Assembly: GCA_043778225.1 (NCBI GenBank)
Contig: JAYWGM010000024.1
Coordinates: 1-36,694, forward strand
Length of the DNA: 36,694 bases
Source of the DNA: Deinococcales bacterium
Lineage (GTDB): Bacteria; Deinococcota; Deinococci; Deinococcales; JAAFIG01
Direction: 5' to 3'
This document shows, in pieces, positions 7,032-24,977 of this stretch (its first letter is position 1; the number at the start of each line of letters is the position of its first letter). The notes beneath the pieces were generated by a model that saw only the letters and a list, made by a program, of their open reading frames with translations, searched no databases and was not told the DNA's origin. The translations under genes and the position numbers were made by a program.

Positions 7032-8426
7032 ATGAATCCTGAAATCCTAACCGCCCTCCAATCCATTGTTGGAGAAAAACAAACCTTTACCGATGCCCGT
7101 TCGCTCGAGATTTTCAGCCTCGACCACTATTGGTATTCGCCCATACTGCTCGAGATGCTAAAAGATAAACGCGCCGATGTGGTGGTCGCACCCGCCAATA
7201 AACTCGAATTGCTCGAGGTCGTGCGTCTGGCGGTCAAACACAGTATCCCTTTAACCATTCGCGGCGCTGGCACCGGAAATTATGGGCAGTGTGTACCGCT
7301 TTCGGGTGGGATTGTGGCAAATATGCACCGCCTGAATACCATTCTCGAGATTAACCCCGAAACAGGTCTGGCTCGAGTTGAAGCGGGGGTGCGAATGGGG
7401 GCGCTCGAGCGTAAGGCGCGTGAAATTGGCTGGGAACTCAAAATCTATCCGAGTACCTGGGCAACCTGTACGATTGGCGGTTTTGTCGGTGGTGGCTTTG
7501 GCGGTGTCGGCAGTATTAACCATGGCACACTTTGGGATAACAATGTTTTGGCAGCCGAAGTCATGACCCTGACCGATAGCCCAGAAATCCTCGAGTTAAA
7601 AGGCTGGGATTGCGCCAGTATTATCCATGCTTACGGCACAACCGCGATTATTACCGAACTGAGTATTCCACTTGCCAAAGCCCAAAACTGGACTGAAGTG
7701 GTTTATAGCTTTCCAACCCTCGAGAATGCAATTACATATGGTCATGCCTTGGCGCTGGACTCGAGTATTCCTAAGCGCGAGCTAGCGGTCAATGAAGCTG
7801 GAATCCCTGAGTATTTTGCGCCGCTGGTGGCAGATGGCGGGGTCAAAGTCGGTCGTGCTAATGTGCTGCTCGAGGTCGAGGCAAGTTTTCTCGAGGCTGC
7901 CACGAGTTTAGCGGCTTCGTTTTCGGGGACGCTCGATTGGCACAATCCACCCGAGAAATACCATAAATCCTCATTTGCAATTTCAGATTTTACCTGGAAT
8001 CACACCACCCTTTGGGCAATGAAAGCCGATGCTGGCATCACTTATTTGCAAGGGCGTTTTATGGCAGAACAGGTTCTCGAGCAGTGCAAATTATTAAAAG
8101 CCAAGTTTGGTAACGAAATCCTGATGCACCTCGAGTTTATCCACGAGAACCTAAGCGCTGGCGGGACGTTGGTCGCAGCTTCGTTGCCACTGATTCGCTA
8201 CTCGAGCTTCGAGCGCTTATACGAGATTATTGATTACTGCGAAGAAATCGGGATTCAAATTGCCAATCCGCACGTTTATTACCTCGACCAAGACCCACGC
8301 TGGAGTGGCGAGGCGGTTCTCGAGGGCGTAAAGAAATTTAATCCGAAATGGCTGCTGAATCCCGGTAAAATTCGGCAACTCGAGACGGGCGAAAAGGGCG
8401 TGAATGCAGGGTCGTGGTTTGCATGA
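7032..8426 (+). CDS. FAD-binding oxidoreductase (FAD_binding_4 / GlcD-like)
   Basis: RGAGTGNYGQCVPLSGG, VEAGV, TIGGFVGGG, C-terminal FNPKWLLNPGK. Confidence 0.9.
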   Translation: MNPEILTALQSIVGEKQTFTDARSLEIFSLDHYWYSPILLEMLKDKRADVVVAPANKLELLEVVRLAVKHSIPLTIRGAGTGNYGQCVPLSGGIVANMHRLNTILEINPETGLARVEAGVRMGALERKAREIGWELKIYPSTWATCTIGGFVGGGFGGVGSINHGTLWDNNVLAAEVMTLTDSPEILELKGWDCASIIHAYGTTAIITELSIPLAKAQNWTEVVYSFPTLENAITYGHALALDSSIPKRELAVNEAGIPEYFAPLVADGGVKVGRANVLLEVEASFLEAATSLAASFSGTLDWHNPPEKYHKSSFAISDFTWNHTTLWAMKADAGITYLQGRFMAEQVLEQCKLLKAKFGNEILMHLEFIHENLSAGGTLVAASLPLIRYSSFERLYEIIDYCEEIGIQIANPHVYYLDQDPRWSGEAVLEGVKKFNPKWLLNPGKIRQLETGEKGVNAGSWFA

Positions 8427-19993: not shown

Positions 19994-20983
19994 TTAACTG
20001 ATGAGGTTTGATGCTTCAAAAGTAACGACGATTTTATCTCCACTTTGTATTTCTAATTCCAAAACTTGAGTTTCTAAGTCTTCAGAAAGATTAACCTCGT
20101 TGATTGATTTACTAAATCCCCAAGGCAGTTTTCTTTCAACTTTATAGCTCGAGACTCCAAAAAGTTTGATTGTTTGACTTGTTAATTTGATTTCTAGAAT
20201 CCCTTTTTTCCAATCAAAGTTAATACTTTCAATGGTCTTATCGTGAAGTTGCTGCGTGTTAATTTTTAGCCGATTTGAAATTTGACTGGCATACATTTCT
20301 GCTGACTCAAGTGAACCGAGTATGTCCAATTTCTCTAGAGCAAATGTAGAGATTTGACTCGGATTCACCTTCTCTATAATTATCGCTCGAGGACATATTT
20401 TCTCTTCGAGATACGCATTGATACGATGATGTCCATCAATCAAAAAGTAACAATTGAACCCATCTTCATTTGGTGATTTCGCTAGAATAATAGCTGGTCG
20501 TTCCCCTGCTTGAATTTTCTTTCGCCACTTATTGACACGACCTGAATCAACGTTACTTTCAGGCAATGTCTTAACGATAAAATCAGAGTTTGGATAACAT
20601 TCCCAGAAATATGTTCCACTTATCACTTCTACGTTTGCTACCCAAAACTCAGAATCTAACTCAAATTCTCGAATTGATACTTCATACAGTCCATCAGCAA
20701 AAAGATTCACAATGGGTTGAACCGTATTTTCTAGGTTATCTGCATTAACGTGAACTTCGCTAATTGAATGGAAGTGATTTCCAATAGAACGAAACCTATT
20801 GTCTGGCGAATTAACAAACCATTGAATAATACTTCCACTAAATTGATTCCAAACTGTTGTGACTAAATTTCCATGAAACACCAATGCGCCACTAAAATCC
20901 GCCTGACCTTGTATATCAAGAATTCCTAAGCCGTTTTCGACGACAAAGTTTCTCGAGACTTCAATTGGATTTCTGGTATTCAT
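19994..20983 (-). CDS. Hypothetical protein with a ParB/Srx-like motif (LIDGHHR), AT-rich
   Basis: GERPAIIL...[13 protein letters not shown], plus an apparently separate C-terminal ~85-aa domain. Confidence 0.6.
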
Positions 20984-20986
20984 AGT

Positions 20987-21316
20987 TCAATCCACAATGA
21001 ATAATTTTGCGCCTATCTCGGTTCTCGAGCGGTGCGCTTCGGCGTTGTCCGCCACTTGATAACTCATACCGGGTTTCAACATAAATACTTGCCCATCTTT
21101 GAGTTCGGTCTCGAGTTCACCCTCTAAGCACAAGAGAATATGTCCTTTGACGCACCAATGGTCAGACACATACCCAGCCGTGTATTCCACCCTGCGAACC
21201 CGAATGCCAGCAAAATTCTGGGTGCGCCAAAAGGCTTTACCAGTAATGCCAGCGTGTTCGGTTGGTTCTATGTGCGCCCAGTCGGTTGTACCGAATGGAA
21301 TTTGGGTCATGTTCAT
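20987..21316 (-). CDS. DHCW-motif cupin-fold protein
   Basis: IPFGTTDW, RVEYTAGYVSDHWCVKGH, GMSYQVAD, GAKLFIVD. Confidence 0.9.
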   Translation of the reverse strand: MNMTQIPFGTTDWAHIEPTEHAGITGKAFWRTQNFAGIRVRRVEYTAGYVSDHWCVKGHILLCLEGELETELKDGQVFMLKPGMSYQVADNAEAHRSRTEIGAKLFIVD

Positions 21317-21336
21317 AGGTCTTCCTTTTAGGGAGT

Positions 21337-22356
21337 TCATCGCTTGAAAATAGGTAATTGGTTTGGGTGTTGATATAGTCGCAAGCCATCATTGACCCCT
21401 AAAGCAAGACTAACTGAGTCTTGAGATAGCGCAAACGACTCATGACCAAAAATATTTGTTTTAAGTTGGTACAGTATTTTTCCTGTAACCAAGTCCCAAA
21501 ATATGATGTTATCACCATAGGCACTGCTTACAATTGTTTTTCCATCTGGTGTAAATCGGGCTTCCCAAACATTTGATTTATGCCCCAAAAACGTAGCAAG
21601 TTCCCTTCCTGTTTGTAAATCAATCCATAGAATGCTCGTTTTATAGGGGAATATGACACTTTTCCCATCAGGATGTATTGCAATATTGCGACCATCAGCT
21701 TGTCGTAGTTTTCTAATCAATTTACCAGAGTTAAAATCAATTAAGAATGTGGAATTATCTAGGGAAGTTACCATAATCTGGCGATTGTCTTGAGAGAAGT
21801 CAATTGCATTAAGATATTGAGCTTCAAGGGTAAATGTTTTATCGAGACTGCCAGTTCTTACATTATATGAGCGAACGTTGTAATCTGCATACGTCGCAAC
21901 TATTTTTTCTTCATCATTAGAAAATTTGATTGCCTGTATTGTTGTGGGCAAATTCTCTAAATTCTTTTCTATTCGAGGATAAGAGCGTGTTCTAAAGACT
22001 TCTTTGAACGTTTCTGTGCGAAAAACATAGAGTATTGTACCTTCTGAAAGGGCAAAAAAACTTCCATTTTTACTAAATTCAACTGCTGAAGATGAACTGT
22101 TTTCTAATAGAAAATCGAAAACTTTTTTACCGAATATTAAATCAAAAATGCTTAAACTTTGACTTTTATCTCCACCAAATTTAGTTCTAGCTATCAATGA
22201 TTTATTGTGATTTATAGCAATTGACGAGGTATAGCCTCCATGATATTTTTGCCACATTATTCTTAGGTCAGCAAAACTATGCTGTGTCTGGGCTGTTATT
22301 ACCTGTGATAGAAGAATAAAAACAAATACTAATCTATAAGTGTTCTGCCGATTCAT
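21337..22356 (-). CDS. WD40-repeat beta-propeller protein, probably exported
   Basis: Repeated FS-x-DG/N blades and FLGH...FTPDGK...IIFWD; hydrophobic N terminus; AT-rich. Confidence 0.85.
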   Translation of the reverse strand: MNRQNTYRLVFVFILLSQVITAQTQHSFADLRIMWQKYHGGYTSSIAINHNKSLIARTKFGGDKSQSLSIFDLIFGKKVFDFLLENSSSSAVEFSKNGSFFALSEGTILYVFRTETFKEVFRTRSYPRIEKNLENLPTTIQAIKFSNDEEKIVATYADYNVRSYNVRTGSLDKTFTLEAQYLNAIDFSQDNRQIMVTSLDNSTFLIDFNSGKLIRKLRQADGRNIAIHPDGKSVIFPYKTSILWIDLQTGRELATFLGHKSNVWEARFTPDGKTIVSSAYGDNIIFWDLVTGKILYQLKTNIFGHESFALSQDSVSLALGVNDGLRLYQHPNQLPIFKR

Positions 22357-23033
22357 ATTTTCACCTTTTTGACTTTTGGTGTATATATCTTGTTGAAAAC
22401 TGAAGTGAATCTATCGCATCGGCTTGAGCGTAACCACCGCATTACATCAGGATTCATCCACTCGAGTAACCGAATCATATCTTCGTAACGACTCCAAAGC
22501 TCACTTGGTTTTTTGTTAATAGGCTCGTGGTGTGCAATTCGGTTACGAAGTTGTCTTATCTTTGTCAAGTCGTCTCGAATCTTCTGAATATTTCTATTGT
22601 TTGGTGTTGTTGCTGGAAATAATAGATTGTTATATGGTCGCCAGAATTCGACCTCATAATTTTTACTAAATAAAGATGTCCAAAATCCAAACATGAGTTC
22701 TGCAACAACAGAGCCAGAATATATGGATTTCTTAGAGGCAGCTAGCTTTTCAACTGCCTTGAATACATCACCGCGTCCTTGTCGGTCAAGTAAGTAAAGC
22801 AATTTACTATCACGAAACCAGTCCTGACCGTACTTCTTGATGAGTACCAGTTCAAATTGATTTCTGAGAACAATTTCTAATTGCTGCATCAAAGGATATA
22901 GCGCTTCACACAATTGAATATTTTCACCGTATTTTTTTAAGGTTCTTGCTCGTGTTTGATTCAAATTACGATAAGAAGATAGGCGAGCAGATGAAATACC
23001 TTTTTCGATCTTAATGTAACTAACTCTTGGCAT
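22353..23033 (-). CDS. Abi-like (Abi_2/AbiF-type) HEPN ribonuclease
   Basis: S-ARLSSY, LEIVLRN, FGFW and the intact HEPN R-x4-H motif LRNRIAHHE. Confidence 0.88.
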   Translation of the reverse strand: MPRVSYIKIEKGISSARLSSYRNLNQTRARTLKKYGENIQLCEALYPLMQQLEIVLRNQFELVLIKKYGQDWFRDSKLLYLLDRQGRGDVFKAVEKLAASKKSIYSGSVVAELMFGFWTSLFSKNYEVEFWRPYNNLLFPATTPNNRNIQKIRDDLTKIRQLRNRIAHHEPINKKPSELWSRYEDMIRLLEWMNPDVMRWLRSSRCDRFTSVFNKIYTPKVKKVKI

Positions 23034-23109
23034 ATATCCTCATAGATTGTAAATTCGGTCAACCGAAATCCAAATTGATTTCTACATCTCTAAACAATTA
23101 CAATGAAAT

Positions 23110-23138
23110 TTGACATTTTATTGAGATTACTATATCCT
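23110..23138 (+). promoter_or_regulatory. Sigma70-type promoter facing away from the Abi gene
   Basis: TTGACA (23110-23115), 17-nt spacer, TATCCT (23133-23138); no credible plus-strand CDS follows. Confidence 0.65.
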
Positions 23139-23144
23139 TTCCAC

Positions 23145-23204
23145 GTTCACCCCGAGATCAGCCTATGGCGCTTCGTGCGTTACGCCCTCGGGGTTCCGTT
23201 TTTT
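23145..23204 (+). ncRNA. Candidate ~60-nt structured RNA (putative antitoxin of the Abi-like HEPN protein)
   Basis: Promoter upstream; 8-bp closing stem ACCCCGAG/CTCGGGGT; inner hairpin; ends in GTTTTTT. Confidence 0.55.
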
Positions 23205-23839
23205 GTGCCGCGTATCTGTAACCCGCTTGTGTTCATTAAGGTACTCAGTAATCGTTCTCGAGACCGCTCGAGGTGCGCCTTAATCGCTTCTTCGGCAGCG
23301 CTCGAGTCACGTAAGGCTATCGTCTCGAGAATCCGCTTGTGGTCGGTGACTGCCTTTTGCTGTCCGCCTTGGGCGTTGGCTTCGTACCAGCGTGTGCGTG
23401 AAAGTCGGGTCAGTACATCCTCGAGGGCGCGGACGTAAAAAGTGTTGCCGCTAAGTCGTGCCATCTCGAGGTGAAAATCGGTGGCGTTTCGCATAAAGGT
23501 TTCTAGGTTTTTAGATGGTTTCTCGAGGGTTTTTAGTAAGGCTTTGATTTGTGTGTCTGTTGCCCGTTCGCAGCTTAGTTTAGCGGCGGCTATCTCGAGC
23601 GTGGCACGGAATTCTAGGGCTTGGCTTATTTCGGCAAAGTCTATCGGGGCAACAATATAGCCGCGTCCGTCTCGTTGGACTAATCCTTCATTCTCGAGTT
23701 TGGCTAGGGCGGTGCGGACGGTGGTGCGGCTGGTGTCTAGGAAGGTCTCGAGTCCGCGTTCGGTCAATGCGTTTCCGGGCGCTAAATCTAAGCGCAGGAT
23801 GGCAGTGCGGAGTTTTTCGTAGGCGAGGCTCGAGGACAT
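23180..23839 (-). CDS. GntR-family (FadR/FCD) transcriptional regulator
   Basis: AYEKLRTAIL..L.PG..L.E..L...L.TSRTTVR.AL; FCD motifs FH...SGN and DH..I. Confidence 0.93.
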   Translation of the reverse strand: MSSSLAYEKLRTAILRLDLAPGNALTERGLETFLDTSRTTVRTALAKLENEGLVQRDGRGYIVAPIDFAEISQALEFRATLEIAAAKLSCERATDTQIKALLKTLEKPSKNLETFMRNATDFHLEMARLSGNTFYVRALEDVLTRLSRTRWYEANAQGGQQKAVTDHKRILETIALRDSSAAEEAIKAHLERSRERLLSTLMNTSGLQIRGTKNGTPRA

Positions 23840-23850
23840 GATGTACCTAT

Positions 23851-23872
23851 TGGTATACCATATGGTGTGCCA
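23851..23872. promoter_or_regulatory. GntR/FadR-type operator pair
   Basis: Perfect palindrome TGGTATACCA (23851-23860) plus degenerate TGGTGTGCCA (23863-23872), 11 bp upstream of the gntR start. Confidence 0.7.
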
Positions 23873-23957
23873 AGACTCAAGTGGATTTGACTTTCGGGAC
23901 TCGAGTCACAGCGCACCTTCAGCAAATACTGTCATAATCCGATGAGGTTACTCGGAT

Positions 23958-24977
23958 ATGCTAATTGTTGAAAATCTTTCTAAGCGTTATCACCCAAATC
24001 ACCCACCCGTGGTGAATAACCTTTCTTTTTGCTTACAGGACAACAGCATCACCGCGATTCTGGGTCCAAGCGGCTGTGGTAAAACCACCACTTTGCGCCT
24101 GATTGCTGGTTTTGAGCGCCCCGATTCTGGCAGTATTATTTTGTCTGGCACGACGCTGGTCTCGAGCAGCGTGGATATTGCCCCCGAGCGACGTGAAATT
24201 GGGTTTGTGTTCCAAGATTATGCTTTGTTTCCGCATTTAACGGTGCTTGAAAATACCTTGTTTGGTTTATCAAAATTACCAAAATCCAAGCGGCTCGAGC
24301 AGGCTCGCAGGGTGCTGGCGCTGGTGGGGTTAAGCATTTTCGAGAAGCGCTATCCGCATCAGTTGTCTGGTGGTCAGCAGCAGCGCGTGGCATTGGCTCG
24401 GGCATTAGCACCAAATCCTAAACTGGTACTGCTGGATGAACCTTTCTCGAGCCTCGATGCTGGTTTGCGCGAAGCGACCCGCAGTGAAGTGCGCGAGATT
24501 TTGTACAAAGCCAGCGCTACAGCCCTTTTGGTGACGCACGACCAAGAAGAAGCCATGACTTTTGCCGACCAATTGCTGGTCATGCGCGATGGCAATTTAG
24601 AACAAGCCGGCGCACCTGAACAAATTTATGCTGTGCCGCGAACTGCGTTTGTGGCATCTTTTCTTGGCAAAACCAATTTGCTTCCCGCTCGAGTCCAAAA
24701 TGGCATTGCCGAGACCAGTTTAGGAAAATTCCCGCTCGAGAACCCAAATGGTAACACGATGCTTTCGATTCGCCCAGAAGACCTGCGTTTCTCGAGTCAA
24801 GGTGTTAGTGGCGAGATTGTCACTAGGGATTTTAAGGGACACGATATTACCTTTACGGTCAAAACCCAGAACGGCATCATTTTGGTGCAAACTCCAGCCC
24901 CTAATTCGCAGCGCGTCGGCGACCAAGTGCATATTTCGCTCGATGGGCAAGCGGTGGCGGTGCGCGGCAGTGTTTAA
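23958..24977 (+). CDS. ABC ATP-binding protein, FbpC/PotA type (TOBE C terminus)
   Basis: GPSGCGKT, FQDYALFPH, LSGGQQQR, LLDEPFS, VTHDQEEA, IRPE. No cognate permease or binding protein is adjacent. Confidence 0.92.
   Translation: MLIVENLSKRYHPNHPPVVNNLSFCLQDNSITAILGPSGCGKTTTLRLIAGFERPDSGSIILSGTTLVSSSVDIAPERREIGFVFQDYALFPHLTVLENTLFGLSKLPKSKRLEQARRVLALVGLSIFEKRYPHQLSGGQQQRVALARALAPNPKLVLLDEPFSSLDAGLREATRSEVREILYKASATALLVTHDQEEAMTFADQLLVMRDGNLEQAGAPEQIYAVPRTAFVASFLGKTNLLPARVQNGIAETSLGKFPLENPNGNTMLSIRPEDLRFSSQGVSGEIVTRDFKGHDITFTVKTQNGIILVQTPAPNSQRVGDQVHISLDGQAVAVRGSV

Follow-up and report, generated by a model that had tools for sequence, protein, structure and literature searches.

A divergently transcribed small RNA gene beside an AbiF-like HEPN protein gene of a Deinococcales bacterium: a candidate RNA-antitoxin module

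The DNA analysed here, called the window throughout, is a stretch of 36,694 nt from a Deinococcales bacterium (assembly GCA_043778225.1, contig JAYWGM010000024.1), and our subject is a pair of neighbouring genes within it: one for an AbiF-like HEPN protein of 226 aa (the Abi gene, called as an open reading frame (ORF) at 22353-23033 on the minus strand) and one for a small RNA of about 60 nt on the plus strand (23144-23204). The next gene, gntR (23180-23839), encodes a GntR/FCD regulator (Pfam FCD 3.4e-22, GntR 6e-14), and the spacer between Abi and gntR, both on the minus strand, measures 146 nt. An earlier note, made from the sequence alone, had proposed at this place an AbiF/Abi_2-type nuclease with a divergent structured RNA, and the elements it named are present. 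The protein contains LEIVLRN, FGFW and an intact RNRIAH motif (RNRIAHHE), and the near-consensus promoter that was placed some 75 bp upstream on the opposite strand consists of a -35 box TTGACA (23110-23115), a 17-nt spacer and a -10 box TATCCT (23133-23138), with 10 of 12 consensus matches. This TTGACA-N17-TATCCT is the best promoter-like site within 22000-24200, and the distance from the start of its -35 box to the Abi ATG is 77 nt.

Downstream of the promoter the RNA folds, on the plus strand, with the stem, inner hairpin and T6 run where the earlier note had located them. A 5' tail is followed by helix P1, in which ACCCCGAG (23149-23156) pairs with CTCGGGGT (23187-23194); AUCA then separates P1 from helix P2 (23161-23162 with 23184-23185), and an internal loop CUA (23163-23165) leads into P3, the inner hairpin (23166-23182), whose arms 23166-23171 and 23177-23182 enclose the loop UUCGU. 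The U-run, T6 in the DNA, closes the unit at 23199-23204. This copy is matched at 77.2 bits by R1, a covariance model built from ten copies of the genus only. Its fold has a minimum free energy of -23.2 kcal/mol (z -2.49), and 5 of 200 shuffles fold equally well; the fold of the single window copy is thus only mildly unusual, and for this reason the case for a more-than-chance RNA rests on comparison across genomes. A mechanical ORF of 111 aa (23103-23438, plus strand) begins upstream of the -35 box, and the same frame runs into a stop, by our reading of the alignment, in a related genome (G007), so that the RNA unit has no credible ORF, as had been claimed. An Rfam scan of the window region gave nothing relevant, the rows for PhotoRC-I (16.4 bits) and a long non-coding RNA being chance matches. 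The short inverted repeat GAAATC-N6-GATTTC, also noticed before, lies between the RNA promoter and the Abi start (23065-23082); its stretch is missing in three relatives with the same gntR-Abi arrangement (G007, G001 and G004), which makes it lineage-specific, and a role as operator was ruled out for want of conservation.

In an alignment of 29 homologs, the conserved residues of the Abi protein are E53, R57-N58, F115-G-F-W118 and R163-N-R-x-x-H168-H169-E, with invariant columns at Y35, N38, E53, R57, N58, L113, F115, F117, W118, R163, N164, H168 and H169. The R-x4-6-H motif of HEPN proteins in the AbiD/F group occurs as R163-N-R-I-A-H168 in 29/29. The assignment to the AbiF/Abi_2 type stands as regards the fold (8VZ6, Z 12.4, below) and not as regards the Pfam cut-off: Abi_2 (PF07751) scores 20.2 bits, below its gathering cut-off of 25.6, HEPN_RiboL-PSP scores 20.7 bits against 28.4, and PF07751 is annotated (precomputed) in 17 of 40 homologs, most of them of about 200-245 aa. 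The best named family is PADLOC PD-T4-5 (PDLC04038, E 3.2e-18, from a library without curated cut-off), of which positions 5-208 of 309 are covered by residues 4-176; AbiD comes second (E 2.4e-5), and an NCBIfam scan of the protein gave nothing useful.

The AlphaFold2 model, computed from the 29-homolog alignment, has a predicted local distance difference test (pLDDT) of 93.1 and a predicted template modelling score (pTM) of 0.86. Its closest structure is 8vz6_A, PbAbiF with its non-coding RNA (ncRNA), both by Foldseek (prob 1.00, TMq 0.63, E 0.053) and by VIA-align (Z 12.4, root-mean-square deviation 3.5 Å, 205 aligned residues); a Z of about 12-13 may be generic for helical proteins, and the match is nonetheless isolated and whole-chain, the second-ranked VIA-align match being the HEPN toxin HepT (6m6w_G, Z 4.8). 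The three-dimensional AbiF fold that marks the AbiD/F group is therefore found in the predicted model. A profile search of PDB sequences likewise gave a weak 8vz6_A match over the full span (E 0.023); the DARPins that headed that search are spurious, matched through LEIVEVLLKN-like repeats. A homodimer, with HEPN residues at the interface as in the AbiD/F group, is predicted as well (ipSAE 0.85 against 0.00 for the best of 3 controls; at least 93% of contacts agreeing between runs; partner pLDDT at least 88), with residues 53-55, 58-59 and 168-169 in the interface. Among proteins of solved structure, the mark of the dimer tool is attained by 20 of 30 pairs and by 1 of 23 single chains, and the prediction may merely mirror likeness, because a similar complex, the PbAbiF dimer of 8VZ6, is already solved. 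From the model we conclude that the product is a compact protein of predicted AbiF fold and HEPN type, positioned at the edge of the Pfam Abi_2 family.

Within the genus (g1; the window's own genome is G000, and the family set comprises 19 genomes), the order gntR-RNA unit-Abi is found in G000, G007, G001 and G004, and in G006 and G003 gntR is followed directly by a DHCW cupin gene. The hairpin is near-identical at the gntR locus of G000, G007, G001, G004 and G006, and TTGACA stands 33 nt from it in 4/4 of the gntR-Abi genomes, with the intervening sequence diverged. In G006, which has no Abi gene there, the hairpin persists with a weakened P1 and without the -35 box, as would a decaying remnant. 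Relative to the window, the Abi alleles at this locus are 79%, 53% and 39% identical and gntR 91-95%; diverged alleles next to a nearly invariant hairpin point to allele exchange beside a conserved RNA gene. Further Abi paralogs occur in G001 (two in tandem, C38), in G003 (two, C62) and in G007 (one, C302), preceded by different genes, namely an unidentified ORF, another Abi gene or purF. Immediately upstream of every genus paralog, at four unrelated loci, the opposite strand carries TTGACA-N17-TAnnnT (a promoter that the search pattern itself required), then a related hairpin and a T-run. Since all genus paralogs carry the unit at unrelated loci, it is not a 3' structure of gntR.

As regards the gntR gene itself, its stop codon lies at 23180-23182, and the RNA is therefore antisense to its last 25 nt (23180-23204), in which ...GTKNGTPRA and the stop are encoded by the 3' arm and U-run of the RNA. 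The gntR of a more distant relative, G002, ends differently, and that of G003 has the hairpin deleted. Judging from the alignment, the gntR C-terminus seems to have been remodelled upon arrival of the RNA gene, because the GTKNGTPRA codons are the complement of the U-run and 3' arm and the G002 gene ends otherwise. The antisense overlap pointed out in the earlier note is thus real and, given that the RNA elsewhere abuts the other genes named above, incidental to the module. The hairpin has no T-run on the gntR strand, hence it is not a gntR terminator.

Comparison of the ten genus copies with RNAalifold gave 13 pairs with compensatory changes in five (for instance CGAG/CUCG, CAG/CUG and CGAA/UUCG). 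On the 19 family genomes, R1 had 12 matches at E<=3.1e-11, ten of them beside intact Abi genes or in the G006 relic and two of them orphans (G000:C98 and G007:C11), together with three weak matches (E 9e-4 to 7e-3). The sole Abi copy without the RNA, in G016, has an internal stop codon. This pattern of decay, in which orphan RNAs survive and the RNA-less Abi gene is broken, fits a toxin-antitoxin pair at the level of gene content.

The orphans were also inspected individually. In the window's own genome, the hairpin at G000:C98:62106-62168 (L111 1501-1563, plus strand; R1 45 bits, E 3.1e-11) has no Abi gene, and both its promoter and its T-run are degenerate. It lies just downstream of an ORF of 378 aa that contains the HExxH motif HELGHLILH; by eye, the N-terminus of this product resembles an XRE-type helix-turn-helix and the remainder an ImmA/IrrE peptidase. 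In G007, contigs C11 (L110 1501-1563) and C302 (L018) are allelic contigs of one assembly, with purF and purD 91-93% identical; both have the RNA gene with intact promoter after purF, followed on C302 by the Abi gene and on C11 by about 360 nt of unrelated non-coding sequence.

A scan of one genome per species found at least 578 relatives, and the best 80 of these at least 578 were taken as distant loci. Their proteins are 29-40% identical to the window Abi protein and belong to Alpha-, Beta- and Gammaproteobacteria, Acidobacteriota, Bacteroidota, Verrucomicrobiota and Planctomycetota, as well as to Chloroflexota, Actinomycetota, Cyanobacteria, Spirochaetia, Geobacter and a Clostridiales metagenome-assembled genome. 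The expected place of an RNA match was defined as the opposite strand directly upstream of Abi. There R1 matched in 44/80 loci at E<=10 and in 36/80 at E<=0.05, against 12 matches elsewhere in the same loci (399 kb). R2, a covariance model iterated from the matches of R1, found the expected place in 67/80 loci at E<=1, in 58 at E<=0.01 and in 39 at E<=1e-5, with five matches elsewhere across the 80 loci, counts that are partly circular in that the model was trained in part on the loci counted. On five whole genomes (3.1-6.9 Mb each), R2 gave one match per genome, always at the Abi locus. Among viral-contig loci it matched 12 of 45, including all nine best protein matches; five weak matches lay off place (E 0.28-0.41, other strand upstream), and the remaining loci are more distant, those of 26% identity matching only residues 13-172. 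Moreover, 1013 plasmid records have a match to the Abi protein, and the gene is also found on prophage-like contigs. At two distant loci, tRNA genes lie about 2 kb upstream of Abi (L046 325-396 and L063 465-538), which suggests tRNA-linked islands.

The RNA copies so collected share one architecture. All 72 unique copies fold as one unbranched hairpin, in the order 5' tail YGUAMR, P1 (mostly CCCCGG/CCGGGG), 2-4 unpaired nt, a P2 of 2-4 bp, a conserved 5' internal loop, a variable P3, a short 3' loop (AYG/UGAU) and the U-run. Of the pentanucleotides directly preceding the inner helix, 19 are CTCTC, 15 GTCTC and 9 GCCTC (the window copy has CUAU), and P3 exists in 37 distinct versions among the 72. 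Proteobacteria, Bacteroidota, Cyanobacteria and Chloroflexi alike retain the loop CUCU/CUAU, the 5' YGUAMR and the CCCCGG of P1. Across 67 distinct distant sequences, in an alignment that is model-fitted and so leans toward the model, 95.8% of cells are paired and two-sided changes occur in 6 of 9 pairs; 0 of 500 shuffles paired as highly, and slid controls reached at most 69.5%. An idea that the CCUCU loop pairs with the Abi ribosome site (anti-Shine-Dalgarno) was set aside after a check of Bacteroidales, whose 10 copies keep the loop although the RNA strand of their upstream 45 nt contains no complementary CCTCT; Shine-Dalgarno sites play only a small part in Bacteroidetes.

The strand was counted in 61 unique upstream copies, after four off-position matches, two second matches and duplicates had been dropped. 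The 12 nt that follow the hairpin contain 6 or more T in 52/61 copies on the RNA strand and in 2/61 on the other, and a -35/-10 pair of at least 8/12 at fixed upstream distance occurs in 32/61 copies compared with 5.8% of 5000 control windows. The Bacteroidales copies have, in 10/10, TAnnTTTG at the promoter position, which we take to be the Bacteroidetes -7 promoter box. The RNA is assigned to its strand because the T-run and the promoter sit at fixed positions on that strand only. G-U pairs moderately favour the same strand: there are 87 on it and 62 on the other, with an excess in 39 copies, a deficit in 16 and a tie in 17. In this context, the gene for the RNA, its strand, its fold and its exclusive tie to this protein clade are established at the level of sequence comparison, and very probably protein and RNA gene make up one conserved module, the divergent RNA being its regular partner as the earlier note had supposed.

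The closest known system is that of AbiF and its ncRNA (PbAbiF-AbiFr, 8VZ6; AbiFCd-RCd22 of the C. difficile phage phi027/phiC2), classed as a type III toxin-antitoxin. AbiF/AbiD-group proteins are described as toxic HEPN RNases neutralised by direct binding of an upstream ncRNA, whose bulged nucleotides occupy the active site (PMC12373285, PMC12737573, PMC13064643). With this system the window module shares the HEPN fold, the R-x4-H motif, a dimer (here predicted) and a short, conserved, structured RNA immediately upstream. The abiF RNA consensus runs from a GC-rich helix of 6 bp through one of 3 bp to CUCUCA in the loop, and in these three features the window-type RNA resembles it; the abiF RNA has, however, a terminal loop where the window-type RNA has P3, and a 6-nt 3' bulge that the latter lacks. 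The protein is also smaller, about 226 aa compared with the 297-300-residue chain of 8VZ6 and the 288-codon AbiF gene of phiC2. Furthermore, abiF ncRNAs lie on the same strand as the gene and are co-transcribed with it (PMC12373285), whereas the window RNA runs opposite to the Abi gene and has a promoter and a terminator of its own.

A search for the abiF RNA motif of Rfam (RF03085) agreed with these differences of form. No match reached the gathering score in the window or E<=10 within 22200-23400, none of 20 distant loci had a match at gathering score and none of 12 at E<=10, and none was found at E<=1 in the window's own genome, the 14 control genomes being silent too. In phage phiC2, used as positive control, RF03085 matched 7066-7101 with 37.6 bits, and the abiF gene (7176-8039) shares that strand, in agreement with the published arrangement of RCd22 (PMC12373285). 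The earlier suggestion of a covariance model from homolog flanks compared with the abiF motif was thus borne out as to covarying structure and failed as to identity: by sequence and structure models the RNA is not the Rfam abiF motif, and homology between the two appears possible.

PD-T4-5, the best named profile match and longer than the protein studied here, is a plasmid-borne single-gene defence of E. coli and a distant AbiF/D relative, toxin-antitoxin-like and acting by abortive infection; in the part of its description available to us no RNA partner is mentioned (PMC9519451). PD-T4-5-like homologs on enterobacterial plasmids are about 25% identical to the window protein and 331-342 aa long. 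At two such loci (L121 and L122, on Klebsiella and E. fergusonii plasmids, with Abi genes of 335-342 aa) there is no R2 RNA, though a divergent TTGAC-type promoter is visible by eye, followed by about 70-80 nt that begin with AUCAAGGCG and run into a shared terminator. The inner sequences of the two differ and match neither R2 nor Rfam; this unit may be another opposite-strand RNA partner.

In ToxIN and AbiQ the RNA consists of tandem repeats, encoded upstream on the strand of the toxin gene, and the toxin processes it. They too combine an RNase toxin with a small RNA in abortive infection, as is proposed for the window module, but ToxN and AbiQ are not HEPN proteins and the window RNA is a single hairpin unit on the opposite strand. 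The usual type III layout (a same-strand upstream RNA, usually of repeats, with a terminator) is accordingly not the one found here, because a single opposite-strand unit has its own promoter; that the RNA binds and inhibits the protein, the other mark of type III, is what the fold and the published AbiF systems would suggest. The type I pairs hok/sok and symE/symR have a divergent antisense RNA at the toxin leader that acts by base pairing; these RNAs are not known to be conserved in sequence across phyla, and type I toxins are mostly small (membrane) peptides. Like these pairs, the window has an RNA of about 60 nt with a strong promoter on the opposite strand at the 5' end of the toxin gene, and the geometry permits the overlap with toxin mRNA that defines type I. 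In HepT-MntA (type VII), the second-best fold match, the HEPN RNase toxin is countered by an adjacent protein, a nucleotidyltransferase, and no MNT gene was found at the window locus. In the literature and in Rfam 15 we found no published account of this RNA, nor of any partner encoded opposite to the gene of an Abi_2-like protein, with the reservation that the primary PbAbiF paper, Zilberzwige-Tal et al. 2025, known to us through citing papers, may cover more AbiF clades. The best reading of the comparison is an AbiF-like RNA-protein module whose inverted, independently transcribed RNA would represent a new class.

As for function, we hold, with a probability of roughly 0.55, that the RNA binds the HEPN dimer as an antitoxin and blocks its toxicity, in a toxin-antitoxin or abortive-infection module. 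The RNA (about 55-60 nt) would be made from its own strong sigma-70-type promoter, as nearly all one rod-like hairpin (P1-P2-P3) with the conserved CUCU/CUAU internal loop, the hairpin doubling as intrinsic terminator. The protein would form a HEPN homodimer with R163 and H168 at or adjoining the interface, and the RNA would bind this dimer and block the RNase site, in the manner of the PbAbiF ncRNA (8VZ6) and of RCd22 with C. difficile AbiF. Phage infection, by stopping host transcription or degrading the RNA, would then free the protein to cut cellular and phage RNA, and this cleavage would arrest growth. Such a trigger, the loss of a labile RNA after phage shut-off of host transcription, is described for ToxIN/AbiQ-type systems (PMC13064643). 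The logic of AbiF is proposed here because of the shared fold, the predicted dimer, and RNA loops that are conserved while the helices covary. Direct binding is preferred over pure antisense action because loop nucleotides are conserved across phyla and helices vary, and because a GC-rich P1, a 3-bp P2 and CUCU are shared with abiF. In this scheme, fold and dimer are predicted by the model, and binding, toxicity and trigger are what we infer by analogy.

Several observations weigh against this reading. The Abi_2 score stays below threshold, the R2 counts are in part circular, and R2 had no match at 13/80 loci; two of these have little or no upstream sequence, and the other 11 show variant hairpins by eye only (P1 CCUAGG or CUGGGA, often with a separate terminator), a soft reading. 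Among plasmid homologs R2 missed 7/8, the lone positive being from Phocaeicola (E 0.0039); the copies on P. aeruginosa and Aeromonas plasmids have, by eye, the CCUAGG variant, and the long enterobacterial and Acinetobacter plasmid forms (331-342 aa) had no R2 match. Likewise, one hairpin serves the Abi alleles of 39-79% identity, that is, RNA and protein do not co-vary at the gntR locus; folding energy is no guide to the strand (the RNA strand folds better in 42/72), and the preference given by G-U pairs is moderate. The distance from the RNA 5' end to Abi residue 1 is short (median about 44 nt) and falls to 8-14 nt in 13 loci, those of Bacteroidales among them, and no sigma-70 promoter was found at a conserved position on the Abi strand, where the fullest bins held 7/61 copies (+45 to +49) and 6/61 (+10 to +14). 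A look for sequencing runs covering 22300-23400 turned up no RNA run; three runs of a single study contain part of the region as contigs, and none of the three is recorded as RNA. Weak Rfam rows at the plasmid loci (Thr_leader, RNAI, P9 and isrK) were well below gathering thresholds and were rejected.

The short distance and the lack of a conserved Abi promoter bear on the strongest rival, a cis-antisense or promoter-interference regulator of type I-like action, in which the RNA, or the firing of its promoter, keeps Abi expression low: Abi transcripts would start within or upstream of the RNA gene, and pairing with their complementary leader, or polymerase collision, would block expression. 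The geometry is equally compatible with it, given how closely the RNA promoter adjoins the Abi start and that the search for a conserved Abi promoter found none. In Bacteroidales the Abi ATG (CCAT on the RNA strand) lies inside the RNA promoter, at G001:C38b it overlaps the -35 box, and the lack of a T-run after the hairpin on the Abi strand makes read-through from gntR possible. Cis-antisense action needs no conserved sequence, yet the loop, YGUAMR and P1 are conserved across phyla; the closest structure is the RNA-binding AbiF, known type I toxins are mostly of the small membrane kind, and orphan copies keep the hairpin with no Abi leader to pair. We therefore regard this explanation as fairly unlikely if taken by itself, and it could operate together with protein binding.

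The association and the fold would suit equally well an RNA that is a positive cofactor, a scaffold or a guide-like partner for HEPN activity or targeting, a step toward use as a CRISPR RNA (crRNA), and AbiF ncRNAs have indeed been proposed to have evolved into the crRNAs of Cas13 (PMC12737573). We consider this improbable: the whole RNA is one conserved hairpin with no variable spacer-like segment, the known AbiF ncRNAs inhibit (PMC12373285, PMC13064643), and the only RNA-less Abi copy is broken, as expected if the RNA protects the cell. Less probable still is a DNA-level element, in which the hairpin would bound a mobile Abi cassette as a recombination or insertion site and have no function as RNA. 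The near-identity of the gntR-locus hairpin in five genomes beside Abi genes that are diverged or absent, the allelic G007 contigs with and without Abi behind the same hairpin, and the AT-rich island almost free of CTCGAG (below) would accord with such a site, but no recombinase accompanies the hairpin at the inspected loci, a promoter at fixed spacing with lineage-specific consensus and a strand-specific T-run fit a transcription unit, and the G-U bias favours the RNA strand. Finally, the null set by the earlier note, in which a hairpin or terminator at the gntR 3' end happens to lie next to an unrelated HEPN gene, can practically be dismissed, for although the hairpin overlaps the gntR stop codon and is retained in the Abi-less G006, it has no gntR-strand T-run, it adjoins Abi behind other genes and in dozens of unrelated species, G006 looks like a decaying remnant, and the genus paralogs, the distant loci and the whole-genome R2 matches all contradict it.

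Beyond the antitoxin reading, a broader picture may tentatively be drawn, which we think possible and rather doubtful. Here an inverted AbiF-type RNA class would span phyla as a stand-alone unit, its terminator hairpin being itself the toxin-binding element, so as to report on host transcription independently of toxin expression. The same RNA gene would be a homologous anchor for the swap or loss of Abi alleles at hotspots (gntR-cupin, purF-purD), and it would combine the roles of sponge and of promoter or antisense occlusion.

The surroundings of the pair differ in composition from the rest of the window. The Abi stretch has a GC content of 0.31-0.40 compared with about 0.50-0.53 in the flanks, and belongs to an AT-rich island (19994-23100) between leuC and gntR that contains orf329, the DHCW cupin gene (GC 0.44-0.49), a WD40 gene and Abi. 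Throughout the window (1-36694) CTCGAG occurs 262 times, about one per 140 bases, against 4.99 +/- 2.17 (max 9) in dinucleotide-preserving shuffles; in gntR it is mostly Leu-Glu codon pairs, and it looks like a palindrome iterated at high frequency, much as HIP1 is in cyanobacteria. From the genes of the island it is almost absent, with one site in Abi and none in the WD40 gene, and the AT-richness together with the near absence of CTCGAG suggests recent acquisition of the Abi stretch. The WD40/beta-propeller gene (21337-22356, minus strand; 339 aa with a hydrophobic N-terminus) overlaps the Abi stop with its ATG (ATGA). It was ruled out as a third component of the module, Abi being followed directly by the cupin gene in G001, where the order is gntR-RNA-Abi-cupin with no WD40 gene; from this order it is probably a separate insertion. 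The product of orf329 (19994-20983, minus strand; 329 aa) gave, at the thresholds applied, no match in Pfam, PADLOC or NCBIfam; an 11-residue stretch in it recalls, in our view, DGQHR/ParB-like motifs, and a partial homolog follows the cupin gene in G001.

If the module is as we read it, many genes annotated as single "hypothetical" or "Abi family" genes would be two-component systems, given at least 578 relatives and the 1013 plasmid records. Protein-only defence-system finders would miss the RNA, and cloning of an Abi gene without its RNA may fail through toxicity. The pair would also offer a minimal set of partners, of about 226 aa and about 55 nt, for structural and engineering work. Currently, AbiF-type HEPN proteins and their ncRNAs are viewed as the root of Cas13 (PMC12737573, PMC12373285, PMC13064643), and a single RNA class is catalogued for them, the same-strand, co-transcribed abiF motif. 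The shared CUCU feature hints at a common descent of the two RNA classes, and a second class, inverted, with its own promoter and tied to a smaller protein clade, would mean that the partnership of RNA and HEPN protein is older or more plastic.

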